From Betaproteobacteria bacterium (GTDB lineage: Bacteria > Pseudomonadota > Gammaproteobacteria > Burkholderiales > Rhodocyclaceae): a stretch of DNA of 64,000 nt. Positions 2,031-46,926 of this stretch are shown one piece after another. The first letter of the stretch is position 1, and each line of letters begins with the position of its first letter. Location of the stretch: positions 7,759 through 71,758 of the forward strand of contig JANNGP010000175.1 of NCBI GenBank assembly GCA_031403915.1, written 5' to 3'. The notes under the pieces are model-generated. The model worked only from the letters and a program-made list of their open reading frames with translations. It ran no database searches and was not told the DNA's origin. Made by a program: the position numbers and the translations under genes.

Positions 2031-4640
2031 TTAAAGCGTAACCGTCTCCGCCACATCACGGAACTCGGCGATCTTGTCGAAGTTCATGTAGCGATACACG
2101 TCGGCAGCCTTGGCATTCACCACTTTGACCTGTTCCATGTACTCGGCCACGGTCGGGATCTTGCCCATCAGCGCACAGATGGCGGCCAGTTCGGCCGAGC
2201 CGAGATAGACAAAGGTGTCGATGCCGAGACGGTTGGGGAAGTTGCGCGTCGAGGTCGAAATCGCCGTGCTGCCCTTCTTGATCTGCGCCTGGTTGCCCAT
2301 GCACAGCGAACAACCTGGCATTTCCATACGCGCGCCGCTCTTGCCGAGGATGGCGTAGTAACCTTCTTCGTTGAGGATCATGGCGTCCATCTTGGTCGGC
2401 GGGGCGATCCACAGGCGGGTCGGGAGGTCGCTCTTACCTTCGAGCACCTTGCCGGCGGCACGGAAGTGGCCGATGTTGGTCATGCACGAGCCGATGAAGA
2501 CTTCGTCGATTTTGGTGCCGGCGACTTCGGAGAGAAACTTCACATCGTCCGGGTCGTTCGGGCAGGCGACGATCGGTTCCTTGACGTCGGCCAGATCAAT
2601 CTCGATCACGGCGGCGTACTGGGCATCGGCATCGGCCTTGAGCAATTGCGGATTGGCGATCCAAGCCTGCATGGCCTTGATTCGGCGAGCAAGGGTGCGT
2701 GCATCGGCGTAGCCGTTGGCGATCATCCACTTCATCAGCGTGATGTTGGAAGTCATGTATTCGATGATCGGCGCCTTGTCCAGATGCACGGTGCAACCCG
2801 CAGCGGAACGCTCGGCCGAGGCATCGGAGAGTTCAAACGCTTGCTCGACCTTGAGATCGGGCAGGCCTTCAATTTCCAGGATGCGACCCGAGAAGATGTT
2901 CTTCTTGCCCTGCTTGGCGACGGTCAGCAACCCTTGCTTGATGGCGTAGTAAGGAATGGCGTTGACCAGATCACGCAGCGTGACGCCGTCCTGCAGCTTG
3001 CCCTTGTAGCGCACTAAAACAGATTCCGGCATATCCAGCGGCATGACACCGGTGGCGGCAGCAAAGGCCACCAGACCGGAGCCGGCCGGGAAGGAAATGC
3101 CGATCGGGAAACGCGTGTGCGAATCACCGCCGGTACCCACGGTATCGGGCAGCAACAGGCGGTTGAGCCAGCTATGGATGATGCCGTCACCCGGACGCAG
3201 CGACACGCCGCCACGGGTAGTAATAAAACTCGGCAGCGTGCGATGGGTATTGACATCAACCAGCTTCGGGTAGGCCGCCGTGTGGCAGAAGGATTGCATC
3301 ACCATATCCGCCGAGAAACCGAGGCAAGCCAGATCCTTGAGCTCGTCGCGCGTCATCGGGCCGGTGGTGTCTTGCGAACCGACAGTAGCCATTTTTGGCT
3401 CACAGTAAGTGCCGGGAATAACGCCCCGCTGTTGACCATTTTCTTCAGGCAAGCCGCAGGCGCGTCCAACCATCTTCTGTGCCAGCGTGTAGCCCGTGCC
3501 GGTATCGGCGGGATTGTGCGGCAGACGGAACAGTGTTGACACCGGAAGCCCGAGTGCCTCACGCGCCTTGGCCGTGAGGCCACGCCCGATGATCAGCGGA
3601 ATGCGGCCGCCGGCGCGCACTTCGTCGAGAATGACTGGTGTCTTGAGCTGTGATTCAGCAATGACCTTGCCGTTCTTGAACGCGGTAACTTTCGTCGTCG
3701 CCATGTCAATATTGAGCTCGATCTCGTCGCCCATATTCATTTCGGAAGCGTCGATTTCGACCGGTAACGCACCGGCATCTTCCATGGTGTTGAAGAAGAT
3801 CGGCGCGATCTTGGTGCCCAGGCAGAAACCGCCGAAACGCTTGTTCGGCACGAAGGGGATGTCTTCGCCGGTAAACCACAGCACCGAATTGGTTGCCGAC
3901 TTGCGCGAAGAACCGGTACCTACCACGTCACCAACGTAAGCGATCAGGTTGCCCTTTTTGGCCAGCGCTTCGAGTTGCTTGAGCGGGCCGCGATTGCCCG
4001 GCTCGTCGGCTTCGATGCCGGGACGCGGGTTCTTGAGCATGGCCAGCGCATGCAACGGAATGTCAGGCCGCGACCAGGCATCCGGCGCAGGTGAGAGGTC
4101 GTCGGTATTGGTTTCGCCAGTGACCTTGAACACAGTGAGCTTTTGTGACGTGGGCACTTCCGGACGCGAGGTGAACCACTCGGCGTCAGCCCACGACTGC
4201 AGTACGGATTTGGCGTTGCTGTTTCCTTTGTCAGCGAGTTCCTTCACGTCATGGAAGAAGTCGAATACGAGCAGGGTCTTTTTCAGCGCTTCGGCAGCCA
4301 CGCCACCGATTTCGGCATCACCCAGCACGTCGATCAGCGGCTTGACGTTGTAACCGCCGAGCATGGTGCCAAGCAGTTCAGCCGCCTTGGCTTTGGAGAT
4401 CAGCGCGCACTTTTCTTCACCCTTGGCGACCTTGGCCAGAAACTCGGCCTTAACCTTGGCGGCGTCATCCACACCAGCGGGAACGCGATAGGTGATCAAT
4501 TCGACCAACACCTGCTCTTCGCCCTTCGGCGGATTTTTGAGCAGCGCAATCAGTTCGGCAGTCTGCTTTGCAGTCAGCGGGAGGGGCGGAATACCAAGCG
4601 CAGCGCGCTCGGCGACATGGGCACGATAGGATTCAAGCAC
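2031..4640 (-). CDS. acnB: Aconitate hydratase B
   Basis: Typical AcnB N-terminus [21 protein letters not shown] from GTG 4640 with a GGAAAGGA RBS; motifs [36 protein letters not shown] and TSTRNFPNR. Confidence 0.97.
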
Positions 4641-43203: not shown

Positions 43204-44508
43204 TCAGGCATTGATTTTCATCACGCGCATAACCGCCGCCACCGTGTAGAACGACCCAAAGACCAGAATTCTATCATTTTCCCCTGCCAGCTTGGCAGCG
43301 CTCGTAAAAGCCTCTTGCGGAGAGCCAAAGCATTCGACACGACCACCCAGTTTGCTGCCGCAAACAACATCAGCCAGCGCCTGAGCCGGCGCGCCACGCG
43401 ACCCGGCCAGGGAGTCCAGACCGGCCAGCATCCAGACATCGATTTTTCCGGACAACGCCGCCAGCGCACCGGCAATATCCTTGTCACCCAGCATGCCGAC
43501 CACAGCAATGGTCTTCTCGAAAAAGCCCATGTCACCCAGATTGGCCGCCAGCCCCGCCACCGCCTGCGGGTTATGTGCCACGTCGAGCACGACCACCGGC
43601 CGGCCTGGTAAAACCTGGAAACGCCCCGGCAATTCGACTTCAATCAAACCGCGCCGAATGGCCTGCATCGACACCGGCAAACGAGCTTTGAGCGTCTCGA
43701 CAACAGCGAGTACCGCCGAGGCATTGCGTAACTGGCATTCGCCGCGCAGGCCGGGTGAAGCCAGACCGTCCCGGCGCAGCTTGTTGCGCCCCCAGAAAGT
43801 CCATTGCGTCTTGTCTCCGGTGTAACCGAAATCACGACCCAGCAATTGCAGATCAGCATCGATTGTGGCGGCGTGATCAAGCAGCGATTGCGGCGGCTCG
43901 GGATCGGCGCAGATGGCAGGAGTTTTCGAACGGAAGATGCCGGCCTTTTCGAAGCCAATGGATTCGCGTGTGGAACCCAGCCAGTCGGTGTGATCAAGGG
44001 CAATTCCGGTCACCACCGCACAGTCGGCATCATAGGCATTGACCGCATCAAGCCGACCGCCCAGCCCCACTTCAAGAATGATGATCTCCACCTGACGCGC
44101 GGCAAAAACCTCCCACGCGGCCAGCGTGCCAAATTCGAAATAAGTCAGCGCGACATTGCCGGCCGATTGCCGGGCCGCCTCGACCTTCGCAAAGGCCTGA
44201 CACAAGGATTCATCATCGACCGACAAGCGATCGACGCGCACGCGCTCGTTGTACGCCAGCAGATGCGGCGAGGTGTAGCAGCCAACGCGATAGCCCGCCG
44301 CCTTGTAGATCGCCTCCAGATACGCGCAGGTCGAACCCTTGCCATTCGTCCCGCCAACAATGATCAGCGGGCAGTGCTGTGTTTGCTGCAACGCCGCCTT
44401 GACCAGCCTGACGCGCTCCAGCCCCAACTCGATCCCGCCCTGCCCCTTGGGGTGCAGGCTTTCGAGGTGGGCAAGCCAGTCAGGGAGTGATTTCAACAAA
44501 TCTTTCAA
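43204..44508 (-). CDS. folC: Dihydrofolate/folylpolyglutamate synthase
   Basis: VGGTNGKGST, YTSPHL, LEVGLGGRLDAVN and DVAHNPQA; TTG start. Confidence 0.96.
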   Translation of the reverse strand: MKDLLKSLPDWLAHLESLHPKGQGGIELGLERVRLVKAALQQTQHCPLIIVGGTNGKGSTCAYLEAIYKAAGYRVGCYTSPHLLAYNERVRVDRLSVDDESLCQAFAKVEAARQSAGNVALTYFEFGTLAAWEVFAARQVEIIILEVGLGGRLDAVNAYDADCAVVTGIALDHTDWLGSTRESIGFEKAGIFRSKTPAICADPEPPQSLLDHAATIDADLQLLGRDFGYTGDKTQWTFWGRNKLRRDGLASPGLRGECQLRNASAVLAVVETLKARLPVSMQAIRRGLIEVELPGRFQVLPGRPVVVLDVAHNPQAVAGLAANLGDMGFFEKTIAVVGMLGDKDIAGALAALSGKIDVWMLAGLDSLAGSRGAPAQALADVVCGSKLGGRVECFGSPQEAFTSAAKLAGENDRILVFGSFYTVAAVMRVMKINA

Positions 44509-44579
44509 GGTGTGGCCTTCACAGGGGCGTAGGTCTCAGTTCGACCCTAAGCGGAAGAAGCTCGTTTGAGGAAGCAGAC

Positions 44580-44667
44580 ATTCAACGTGCAGGTCAGCCG
44601 CGCCGGAAGTTGACGCTCAGAAAACAAGCTGCATACTTCCCGGTGTCGGCTGGACTGGCAGTTGGAA
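44580..44667 (-). mobile_element. Integron attC recombination site (88 bp)
   Basis: Minus strand reads TTCCAAC...AGTCCAGCCGACACC...GGCGCGGCTGACCTGCAC-GTTGAAT. The final 7-mer is a perfect GTTRRRY core, the arms resemble aadA-type attC, and there are unpaired G and T bases on the bottom strand. Confidence 0.8.
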
Positions 44668-44752
44668 TACAAATAAAACTGGCATCATTCCATTTTGCTC
44701 AATGATTGTTGGGTGTCCGCTGTTGTAATGTCCAACGCTGGAAGTAATTATC

Positions 44753-45211
44753 TCAAGCGCTAACGGCCTTTCTTAGATTCAAAAAATAGAGCACCCCAAA
44801 TACGATGAATATAATCCCGCCATAAAACGGTAACCAAATATCACTTCCCACCCCTGGTAAGAGAATTGAATTCTTTGGATTCTTTGGGTCATAAGAAACA
44901 GGCCCACGTCGCCCAACGGGAAACTTCATTGCGAGCTCTTCTGCATTTTTGCGACTCATGCCAGTATCAAATGATTCTGCATAAATACGATCGCTCTTAT
45001 AAGTCATACCATTTACTTCATATGAGTATTCAATGCGGGCAACTGATGTTGAGTCATGGCTATCTTCCGCTGCACTATAAGTTATGACGGCCTCAGCTTT
45101 TGGCCAGCTTGTGCTCCTCATTCCTTCTTTGTAATCCTGAAAACCTATAAACAATAAAACGAAGCCTAAAACAACCATTCCCACTGACCAGAGATAATTC
45201 AACCTTTGCAT
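44753..45211 (-). CDS. DUF3592-like membrane protein (putative cassette gene)
   Basis: AT-rich ORF with an N-terminal TM, SWP...A.ITYS, IEYSYEVNG.TY, V.YDPKNP..SIL and a C-terminal TM; likely start ATG 45211 (ORF is open to 45283). Confidence 0.75.
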   Translation of the reverse strand: MQRLNYLWSVGMVVLGFVLLFIGFQDYKEGMRSTSWPKAEAVITYSAAEDSHDSTSVARIEYSYEVNGMTYKSDRIYAESFDTGMSRKNAEELAMKFPVGRRGPVSYDPKNPKNSILLPGVGSDIWLPFYGGIIFIVFGVLYFLNLRKAVSA

Positions 45212-45504
45212 TTTGAATCCTGCCTCAATAAAAATTAATTTCAATCTCATATCCATCGGGGTCAGATACAGACAAGGGGACACCCAATATTTTCTGGGGC
45301 ACCGACAAACCTGACAGGCTCAAACTTTACCCCGATAGCATCTGCTCCGCGACTCGCGGACCGCTAGCCGACAATTCATCATGCCGCACTGACCGCTTGG
45401 AAGCTCAGTCGCGGAAGGCCGTTTGTGGCCGAACTGAGACAAATAGTTCTACACCTCACTGCAAATTTATGTGCCACATCGCGTAGCGCCAGTGGCGCAA
45501 CTAT

Positions 45505-45768
45505 CTACTTTTGTTGATGCGCTTTCACGTAACTACGCAAAACGGCATTGATGCGCGTTTGATACCCCTGTCCGCCATCCTTGAAGTACGCCATGATATC
45601 GGGGTCAATGCGCAAGGTCACTTGCCGTTTGACCATCGGCGAATTCACTGAAGCGTTTTCCCAGAACTTCACATCCGTTTCCGGTGTATCCGAGTAATCG
45701 ATTCCCTTATCACTCATCGCGTCGATGCGCGACAAGTCGCTCTTGATAGATTTTTTGCTCGCGTTCAT
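45505..45768 (-). CDS. brnA: BrnA antitoxin
   Basis: IDYSDTPE and KRQVTLRIDPDI...FK..G.GYQTRINAVLR. Confidence 0.92.
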   Translation of the reverse strand: MNASKKSIKSDLSRIDAMSDKGIDYSDTPETDVKFWENASVNSPMVKRQVTLRIDPDIMAYFKDGGQGYQTRINAVLRSYVKAHQQK

Positions 45769-46000
45769 TGGCTTTCCTCATAGAAATGATACGCACCCTG
45801 CCGGCACGCTCGGTATGCGCTATCAACACGACACGCCCACATAGAGCTCCAAGTGAAACGAAGCGTGCTTCCTCATAGTCTTTCCGATGATCAGCAACGG
45901 TAATGACGTCACCCTCGAAAACTGCCTCTGCATCTTCAAAAGCCAAACCATGTTTCTTGAGATTAGCTTGATTCTTTGCCTCATCCCATTCGTAACTCAT
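45710..46000 (-). CDS. brnT: BrnT toxin
   Basis: YEWDEAKNQANLKKHGLAFEDA and RIISMRKAN.RE. Confidence 0.93.
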   Translation of the reverse strand: MSYEWDEAKNQANLKKHGLAFEDAEAVFEGDVITVADHRKDYEEARFVSLGALCGRVVLIAHTERAGRVRIISMRKANEREQKIYQERLVAHRRDE

Positions 46001-46035
46001 GATATATTGTAGTTACTAAATGTAGCTACACGCAA
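46001..46035 (-). promoter_or_regulatory. brnTA promoter/operator, probably leaderless
   Basis: TTGCGT-18 nt-TACAAT-5 nt-ATG; palindrome TGTAGCTACA (46021-46030) plus imperfect copy TGTAGTTACT (46008-46017); no RBS. Confidence 0.55.
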
Positions 46036-46053
46036 GTGAATTCGGATGCACTT

Positions 46054-46926
46054 TCAGGCAGCCGCCGGCAGTTTTTGCAGCATGGTCAGAATCTGCGCCA
46101 GCCTGTCCTTCATTTCACGACGATCAACGATCATGTCGATGGCACCTTTTTCCATCAGAAACTCGGCACGCTGAAAGCCTTCCGGCAGGGTCTGGCGCAC
46201 CGTCTGCTCGATCACGCGCGGCCCGGCAAAGCCAATCAATGCGCCCGGTTCGGCAATCACCACGTCGCCGATGAAAGCAAATGAAGCGGATACGCCGCCC
46301 ATGGTCGGGTCGGTAAGGATGGAAATGAAGGGCAGCCGGGCTTCCGAAAGCTTGGTCAAAGCGGCGGAGGTTTTGGCCATTTGCATCAAGGAGAACAGGC
46401 CTTCCTGCATGCGTGCGCCACCGGAGGCGGTGACGCAGATGAAAGGCAAGCCTTGTTCAACGGCGGCCTGCACACCGCGGACGAAGCGTTCGCCGAGCAC
46501 CGAGCCCATCGAGCCGCCCATGAAGTTGAATTCAAAGACGGCAACCACTACCGGCAAGGTCTTAAGCGCACCCTGCATGACCACCATCGAATCCGTTTCG
46601 CCGGTACTCTCGGCGGCATCCCGAAGGCGATCCGAGTAACGCTTGCTGTCCTTGAACTTGAGCGGGTCAAGGGGCAAGACCTCCGATCCGATTTCAAAGC
46701 GCCCCTCCGGATCAAGCAGTAGGTCAATCCGCGCCCGCGCATCCAAACGATTATGGTGTGCGCACTTCGGGCAAACATTGGCGTTCTGTTCCAGATCAGT
46801 GGCGTACAGCACCGCCTCGCACGACGGGCACTTGCTCCACAAGCCCTCGGGGAGATTGGACTTGCGGGCCGCTCCGCTGTCATTGCGCTTGATTTTTGGC
46901 GGCAGAAGTTTAGTTAACCAGCTCAT
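46054..46926 (-). CDS. accD: Acetyl-CoA carboxylase carboxyltransferase beta subunit
   Basis: CPSC...CPKC zinc finger, FMGGSMG and SGGARMQEG. Confidence 0.97.

Follow-up and report, generated by a model that had tools for sequence, protein, structure and literature searches.

A putative integron-type cassette lies within a 908-bp inverted-repeat-bounded element in the accD-folC spacer

Introduction

Solitary cassettes (SALINs) and arrays without an integrase (CALINs) exist in large numbers. How they originate is debated; routes published so far are the decay of integrons and direct insertion by the integron integrase (IntI) at a genomic GWT. Other small modules are bounded by repeats. In integron mobilisation units and in Tn402-like integrons with MITEs at their flanks, two complete, transposase-less MITE copies lie around the integron and could move it in trans. 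The pdif modules of Acinetobacter plasmids hold few genes, often toxin-antitoxin (TA) or resistance genes, between inverted short sites, and they have neither a transposase nor a target duplication. For the direct route, insertion by attC x attG recombination needs GWT only, and 3400 SALINs have been counted in 21,105 genomes (Loot et al., 10.1101/2022.09.11.507474).

Here we describe a candidate cassette between the core genes accD and folC. It lies in a window of 64,000 nucleotides, by which we mean the whole stretch of DNA that was analysed. An initial annotation of this window had proposed a solitary cassette that entered a core operon by capture at a secondary site. Our analysis retains the solitary cassette and points to a different route of arrival.

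Materials and Methods

Seeds for a covariance model of attC were harvested with a regex-plus-folding scanner, which is crude, returns many false palindromes and served for this harvest only. Class 1 cassettes supplied seven seeds, from three plasmid records retrieved via the host IntI protein, and cassette arrays beside intI supplied another 24, from complete genomes of the family. For model R1 these seeds were aligned and given a hand-written structure. Model R2 was rebuilt from 66 array matches to R1 and realigned; the window site was never in the training set.

Results

On the minus strand of the window the genes follow the order trpB, trpA, accD, brnT/brnA, a DUF3592 gene, a hairpin, folC, a SPOR-domain gene, cvpA and purF, with Pfam matches backing every protein named here, among them AccD, FolC, BrnT, BrnA and DUF3592. 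From 44509 to 46053 the G+C content is 0.40-0.50, as compared to ~0.60 in the neighbouring DNA; the initial annotation had described the gene in this insert as AT-rich and DUF3592-like. The features of the region are as follows, in the direction of transcription.

46054..46926, minus strand: accD, the core gene upstream (Pfam Carboxyl_trans and Zn_ribbon_ACC; nearest relative 93% identical)
45498..46036, minus strand: brnT/brnA module (brnT 45710-46000, brnA 45505-45768) with its own operator region
45441..45497, minus strand: left half of the native spacer hairpin, split by the terminal-inverted-repeat (TIR) element; it folds once joined to 44509-44532
44533..45440, minus strand: 908-bp TIR-bounded element without a transposase, delimited by inverted repeat I1, by identity to the metagenome contig L068 and by family members
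45390..45440, minus strand: left end of the element, TIR-L GTCTCAGTTCGGCCACAAACGG (45440-45419) and a subterminal region of ~30 nt
44753..45211, minus strand: DUF3592 gene, 152 aa (ATG at 45211, AGGA 6 nt upstream; Pfam DUF3592 2.3e-13)
44580..44667, minus strand: most likely an attC site, 88 nt; its bottom (recombinogenic) strand is the plus strand of the window
44533..44586, minus strand: conserved right end of the element, G|TTGAAT-GTCTGCTTCC-N-CCGCTTAGGGTCGAACTGAGAC, with TIR-R at 44554-44533
44509..44532, minus strand: right half of the native spacer hairpin, from the fold of the joined flanks
43204..44508, minus strand: folC, the core gene downstream (Pfam Mur_ligase_M and Mur_ligase_C; synteny in relatives)

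The two core genes are neighbours in 13 of 17 relatives, with a spacer of 5-175 nt, in agreement with the initial annotation, which had called their adjacency common. Within the genus this spacer is a local hotspot for insertion, and other inserts occupy it in three genomes. That of genome G008 (L033, C38, 3650-5000) has an AbrB/VapC-type TA pair between 113-nt direct repeats, as well as a CTCTGCG-rich palindrome. The inserts of G004 (6.1 kb; L049, C10) and G012 (more than 2.6 kb; L035, C1) come with a duplicated 3' end of accD, in the style of integrative islands.

Most likely, the hairpin that follows the DUF3592 gene is a true attC. It is a single imperfect hairpin that lies 3' of the ORF, 85 nt past the stop codon (44753) and on the same strand as the gene, and its length of 88 nt is inside the attC range of ~57-141 nt. 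Read on the minus strand from 44667 to 44580, the sequence is (A)TTCCAAC-TGCCA-GTC[C]CAGCCG[A]CACCGG...CCGGCGCGGCTGAC-CTGCAC-GTTGAAT, which divides into the boxes R'' (TTCCAAC) and L'' (GTC[C]CAGCCG[A]C), a variable loop, and the boxes L' (GGCTGAC) and R' (GTTGAAT), with spacers of 5 nt and 6 nt. R' fits GTTRRRY exactly, and R'' pairs with it but for one bulged C. The L box contains two extra bases, a C and, seven bases on, an A, which on the bottom strand are G and T. In a plasmid record the attC of aadA1 has the sequence GTCTAAC-AATTC-GTT[C]AAGCCG[A]CGCCG..CGGCGCGGCTTAAC-TCAAGC-GTTAGAT, and its extrahelical pair shows the same spacing of seven bases. The initial annotation had described this site correctly, both in its placement and orientation downstream of the gene and in its perfect core, its aadA-like arms and its extrahelical G and T. 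The plus strand of the hairpin folds at -21.6 kcal/mol (z=-3.2), a value matched by a single shuffle in 200, and for the minus strand z is -2.5. The window site is unlike the attC sites of the host itself, in which GCCTAAC/GTTAGGC cores go with GC-rich loops; this difference fits a foreign, AT-rich cassette. The hairpin has no match in Rfam, and a reading of it as a terminator was rejected because it is not followed by a T run. A further inverted repeat that surrounds the gene, I4 (TTGGGTGTCC/GGACACCCAA), lacks conservation in L068 and is therefore probably due to chance.

Model R1 gave the window site 14.7 bits (E=0.38), and R2 gave it 22.2 bits (E=0.013 per 64 kb), over the full length and on the gene's strand. 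With either model it was the sole match on both strands of the 64 kb (for R2 at E<=10). In a search of 44400-46100 (1.7 kb) with R2 and filters off, the site reached E=3.4e-4 while everything else stayed at or below 4.7 bits; a degenerate attC that had been considered after brnA (45513-45427) received no support from R2. Across the 3.09-Mb genome R2 returned 17 sites at E<=1, which cluster on small contigs and represent the host's arrays, and the window attC, with a borderline genome-scaled E of ~0.6, was not among them. Since the genome-scale score is borderline, its significance rests on the place of the site in an insert that is defined independently, by synteny. It is the position and orientation in this insert, together with the position-for-position match to the aadA1 attC, both extrahelical bases included, that make the attC convincing. 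The DUF3592 ORF with its attC is best read as a solitary integron-type cassette (SALIN).

Elsewhere in this genome, an intI on contig C167 scores 501 bits with TIGR02249 (cut-off 265), and its product shares 60% identity with IntI1. Matches to intI lie on C167, C189 and C152 and none on the window contig, C175; attC arrays of the host are found on separate short contigs (C120, C234, C235, C212 and C124). Contig C167 stops 935 nt past intI, and the regex-plus-folding scanner found no attC on it. A complete integron, with intI, attI and an adjacent array, is not present at the accD-folC locus, and profile and R2 searches agreed that the window holds neither an integrase nor a second attC. Both the solitary state of the cassette, one attC with neither intI nor another att site nearby, and the integron that the initial annotation had expected in the genome were therefore confirmed. 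In the family, intI was present in 69 of the 121 sampled genomes.

Two side observations concern these contigs. Just upstream of intI on C167 (L001), the sequence at 2490-2580 is repeated ~680 nt away at 3165-3260; the copies enclose a HicB/HicA-like pair, and there is no recognisable attC there up to the contig end. More attC matches, of 24.7-45.9 bits, were seen at C116:33438-33507, C116:36504-36572 and C156:20527-20598. C116 (77.8 kb) and C156 (25.7 kb) are distinct from the intI contig, and these sites may be additional integrase-less cassette outposts.

The cassette is part of a larger unit. Over 892 bp, contig L068 aligns with window positions 45432-44541 at 86% identity; outside this stretch the two are unrelated. 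The unit shared in this way begins ~220 nt upstream of the DUF3592 start codon and extends beyond the R' core by 39 nt (by 45 nt when counted from the crossover G). It ends in imperfect inverted repeats, TCGGCCACAAACGG and CCGCTTAGGGTCGA, which reach 22 nt in the family of this genome (GTCTCAGTTCG...). In the window element these 22-nt terminal inverted repeats, of the form GTCTCAGTTCGRCC..AARCGG, make up inverted repeat I1, which is 82% complementary. We take the GTCTCAG...AAACGG repeat to bear a partial resemblance to Tn21-type inverted repeats.

On the chromosome the junctions of the element are ATTT|GTCTCAG at the left and GAGAC|CTAC at the right, neither of which is GWT. When 44533-45440 was deleted and the flanks were joined, a 60-nt hairpin was obtained (-17.5 kcal/mol, z=-3.16). 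This hairpin reforms only on removal of the full 908 bp, and the insertion point is two bases from the loop of the reconstructed structure. The boundaries in L068 and the reconstituted hairpin are in keeping with whole arrival of the 908-bp unit and at odds with placement of a cassette by IntI at a chromosomal GWT. On this point the initial annotation finds no support: what it took for a cassette captured at a secondary site in the operon is part of a larger shared unit that ends in inverted repeats and has junctions other than GWT. No direct repeats indicative of a target-site duplication flank the window element or those in L099, L100 and L140. An exact AccD look-up gave no same-species contig with an empty accD-folC site, and no genuinely empty allele turned up.

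Inside the element, the junction between G|TTGAAT and the right end does fit the attC x attG type. No left-hand G|TT junction of the cassette could be located. The GTTGAAT at 45203-45197 was rejected as such a junction, because it falls within the ORF, whose ATG and well-placed Shine-Dalgarno sequence precede it, and because L067, L124 and L125 do not conserve it (CGTGGAAAT, GGTGGAAT).

The right end of the element is a motif of ~57 nt, [TTGAAY]GTCYGCTTYCC followed by 18-20 nt and then CCGCTTNGGGTCGAACTGAGAC, copies of which occur in many genomes of the family, and most of those in relatives are solo. Its exact 19-nt terminus is also found in Nitrospira, Methylococcales, Thiobacillus and Chromatiales assemblies, and a search of the plasmid collection gave chance matches only. 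The motif does not fold on its own (z=+0.25), and an origin from a known or tRNA-like RNA was rejected (no Rfam, no ARAGORN match). In the genome under study, the following contigs carry related sequences.

Own contig C24: right-end motif closing a cassette array, with an attC of 16.2 bits
Own contig C44: copy of the element with an EamA transporter as cargo
Own contig C198: 75-nt copy, empty of cargo
Own contig C171: left end

The left subterminal region is common to own contigs C44 and C171 and to L124 and L068, and together with the left inverted repeat it recurs with other cargo in C44, L104 and L112. Paired copies bracket a variety of cargo: a PT-HINT protein accompanied by an attC, an SMR pump whose attC has decayed, a regulator of the Crp type, a cyclase, or a reverse transcriptase with its partner gene. 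The cargo proteins of paired copies contain no transposase domain, no transposase-bearing (autonomous) copy was found, and target duplications were not seen at paired copies. With 22-nt TIRs, copies that differ in their insides and no internal transposase, the family has the make-up of a MITE or other non-autonomous TIR transposon.

In L111, L104, L118 and own contig C24 the right-end motif starts exactly at the end of an R' core, in the same register as in the window. The array in L119/L111 (genome G180) has at least nine attCs of 28.5-76 bits and is interrupted by an IS3-family element, and GTCTGG begins directly at the end of its last attC. L104 is a 1.1-kb element in which the left repeat is accompanied by a single PT-HINT cassette and an attC (21.9 bits). 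Strong attCs of these arrays have R' cores of the GTTGAAY type (for example in L102, 47.8 bits), and empty copies of the element (own contig C198 and L110) read T|TTGAAW at the position of the attC junction. The motif also terminates elements that have no attC, and since many members carry cargo in this way, the cargo is not always loaded by IntI. None of the arrays adjoining intI in complete genomes of the family ends in the motif, and the left inverted repeat was not found upstream of the long arrays (G180, G034, G186 and G222).

In a Methylovulum MAG (L140, 2999-5229) a pair of these terminal repeats encloses an RVT_1 gene (3.8e-22) and a partner of 303 aa with no Pfam match, which looks like a defence-type module on a member of this element family from another class. 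In the Methylococcales contigs L129, L130 and L140 the 18 nt outside ...CTGAGAC are similar too (AGTCAATGCYTGATRCAG); this likeness could reflect either a longer, lineage-specific repeat or an orthologous insertion site.

The cargo gene has a history of its own. Homologues of DUF3592 on metagenome contigs share 67-89% identity and have different neighbours each time, and the gene module at 45248-44716 is found in other contexts too. L124 combines the same gene with the same element family and has no attC. In L068 the counterpart of the hairpin has kept its R and L boxes and has lost stable folding (z ~ -0.6); it is not matched by the model, and the changes are not compensatory. At 2860-2960 of the same contig a second left end starts 62 nt past the right end of the DUF3592 element, which means that elements can sit in tandem. 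Both left ends are preceded by the same 18 nt (CATGGCATCAGGCGGTTG), and a SnoaL-like ORF follows the second.

The brnTA module is a separate insertion from the TIR element. Its proteins match BrnT_toxin (PF04365; 94.6 bits, 4.5e-27) and BrnA_antitoxin (PF14384; 60 bits, 2.9e-16), the two ORFs overlap at 45710-45768, and a gap of 220 nt separates brnA from the DUF3592 gene. Nucleotide homology to other contexts (L141 and L142) covers exactly 46036-45498, and R2 with filters off found no attC in the module. The closest brnTA homologue is on L141, a Zot-bearing, filamentous-phage-like contig, where it is located between two copies of a palindrome, GTTTCGCATGCGAAAC (3650-3700 and 4205-4235). A small second hairpin (GCGCCACTGGCGC) is present in the window directly after brnA.

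Discussion

On balance we favour the view that the attC cassette is cargo of a TIR element that served as an IntI-loaded docking site and then moved as a whole unit into the spacer hairpin. Two independent foreign pieces would have entered the accD-folC spacer, brnTA (46036-45498) and the 908-bp element (45440-44533), both in the orientation of the operon. In a first step the element would have acted as a GTT-type docking site, into which IntI inserts cassettes by attC x attG-like recombination; the R' core of the cassette would by this step have become fused at G|TTGAAT to the conserved right end. In a second step the loaded, non-autonomous element would have moved as a unit, by a route independent of IntI, and landed close to the tip of the hairpin that is native to the spacer. 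This view builds on the anatomy and score of the attC, the boundaries of the unit, its inverted repeats, the recurrent junction between attC and right end and the reconstituted target hairpin. From these we infer that the internal junction was made by IntI and that the element transposes; the cargo and folC would probably be expressed via read-through from accD. The role of IntI in loading is put conditionally in view of the decayed site in L068, the attC-less element of L124, the intI-adjacent arrays that do not end in the motif and the unlocated left junction.

A broader proposal is that GTCTCAG-type inverted-repeat elements, from 75 nt to 4 kb in size, are as a class undescribed mobile docking platforms that have no transposase, target hairpins and are loaded by IntI at a built-in G|TTGAAY. 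We advance it as a speculation that is rather unlikely to hold in full. If true, such platforms would seed SALINs and CALINs and let them pass from one chromosomal site to another, and also across phyla, with no need of an integron platform. No counterpart of the carrier element was found in the SALIN/CALIN literature consulted or in the plasmid collection.

We also considered that the hairpin might be no integron site at all, being either a structural part of the element or a decaying chance palindrome. The genome-wide E is not significant, the L068 copy is missed by the model and differs without compensation, and the element family carries cargo without attC, all of which would agree with this idea. 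However, the hairpin is missing from most family members and is therefore not an integral end structure. Neither a T run nor an Rfam match suggests another function. The aadA1 attC is matched in the spacing of the extrahelical bases, in both spacers (5 and 6 nt) and in the cores. Moreover, the site has the same placement relative to the right end as the high-scoring attCs in L111 and L104, and the chance of such a score within the 1.5-kb insert is ~3e-4. A hairpin unrelated to integrons is thus improbable.

It is likewise improbable that the locus is the stump of a CALIN, with brnTA and DUF3592 as two cassettes of which the first has a decayed attC, and with the motif as the DNA beyond the last attC, brought here by homologous or illegitimate recombination. 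A TA pair is typical cassette content, real arrays (L111 and own contig C24) are closed by the 57-nt motif, which is mostly solo, and a weak AAC...GTT symmetry follows brnA. Yet no second attC emerges with filters off (<=4.7 bits), and the bounds of brnTA recur in a phage-like context without cassette features. Such a stump would also leave the recurrence of the left repeat and subterminal region with other cargo (C44, L104 and L112) to be explained, and the flanks reform a hairpin around the 908-bp unit alone.

Very unlikely, finally, is a free DUF3592 cassette that IntI put directly at a GWT of the spacer, the repeats being incidental: the attC is intact and correctly oriented, the genome has intI, insertions of this kind need just GWT and are common (Loot et al., 10.1101/2022.09.11.507474), and GTTGAAT is present at both 45203-45197 and 44586-44580, but the L068 homology runs from ~220 nt above the ORF to 39 nt past the R' core and stops at inverted repeats, the upstream GTTGAAT is in the ORF, after an ATG with a good Shine-Dalgarno sequence, and not conserved in homologues, the chromosomal junctions are not GWT, and the empty-site hairpin requires removal of the full 908 bp.

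The cassette as cargo of a TIR element suggests a third contributor to the origin of SALINs and CALINs, besides the two published routes: a small, repeat-bounded carrier on which a conserved sequence adjoins one cassette or, elsewhere, an entire array, and which lands whole in core-operon hairpins. Should the carrier be mobile and loaded by IntI, this would account for CALINs of different genera that share an end sequence, cassettes would spread without an integron platform at their destination, and CCGCTTNGGGTCGAACTGAGAC would be a sequence tag for locating cassette outposts. For annotation the lesson is that an attC match alone is silent on the route by which a cassette arrived.

Compared with known systems, the attC itself is closest to those of aadA1, aadA2 and blaVIM-2, with which it shares the arms (..AGCCGAC...GCGGCT.AAC), both extrahelical positions and the spacer lengths. 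It differs from them in its longer and AT-richer loop (88 nt vs 60 nt), in its cores (TTCCAAC/GTTGAAT vs TCTAAC/GTTAGAT) and in a 1-nt bulge of the R box. The terminus of the element is unlike dif/XerCD sites, and the elements are chromosomal, which sets them apart from pdif modules. As in MITE-flanked integrons, short transposase-less inverted repeats bracket cassette DNA; the window, however, has a single element with asymmetric ends and the cassette inside, and with neither a target duplication nor a match in the plasmid collection. With CALINs (Cury et al. 2016, NAR) the locus has in common that integrase-less arrays of relatives, such as that of G180, close in the 57-nt motif, but the window has one attC, and the terminal motif with its inverted partner falls outside the CALIN definition. 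The likeness to SALINs (Loot et al., 10.1101/2022.09.11.507474) goes further: one ORF is paired with one attC, the neighbourhood has no intI, attI or further attC, the genome has an integron at another place, and the cassette is oriented with host transcription. In contrast to a SALIN formed by attC x attG recombination, the window cassette lies in a 908-bp inverted-repeat element and not in host DNA at GWT, and its R' runs directly into a conserved 57-nt sequence, copies of which are found in many genomes.
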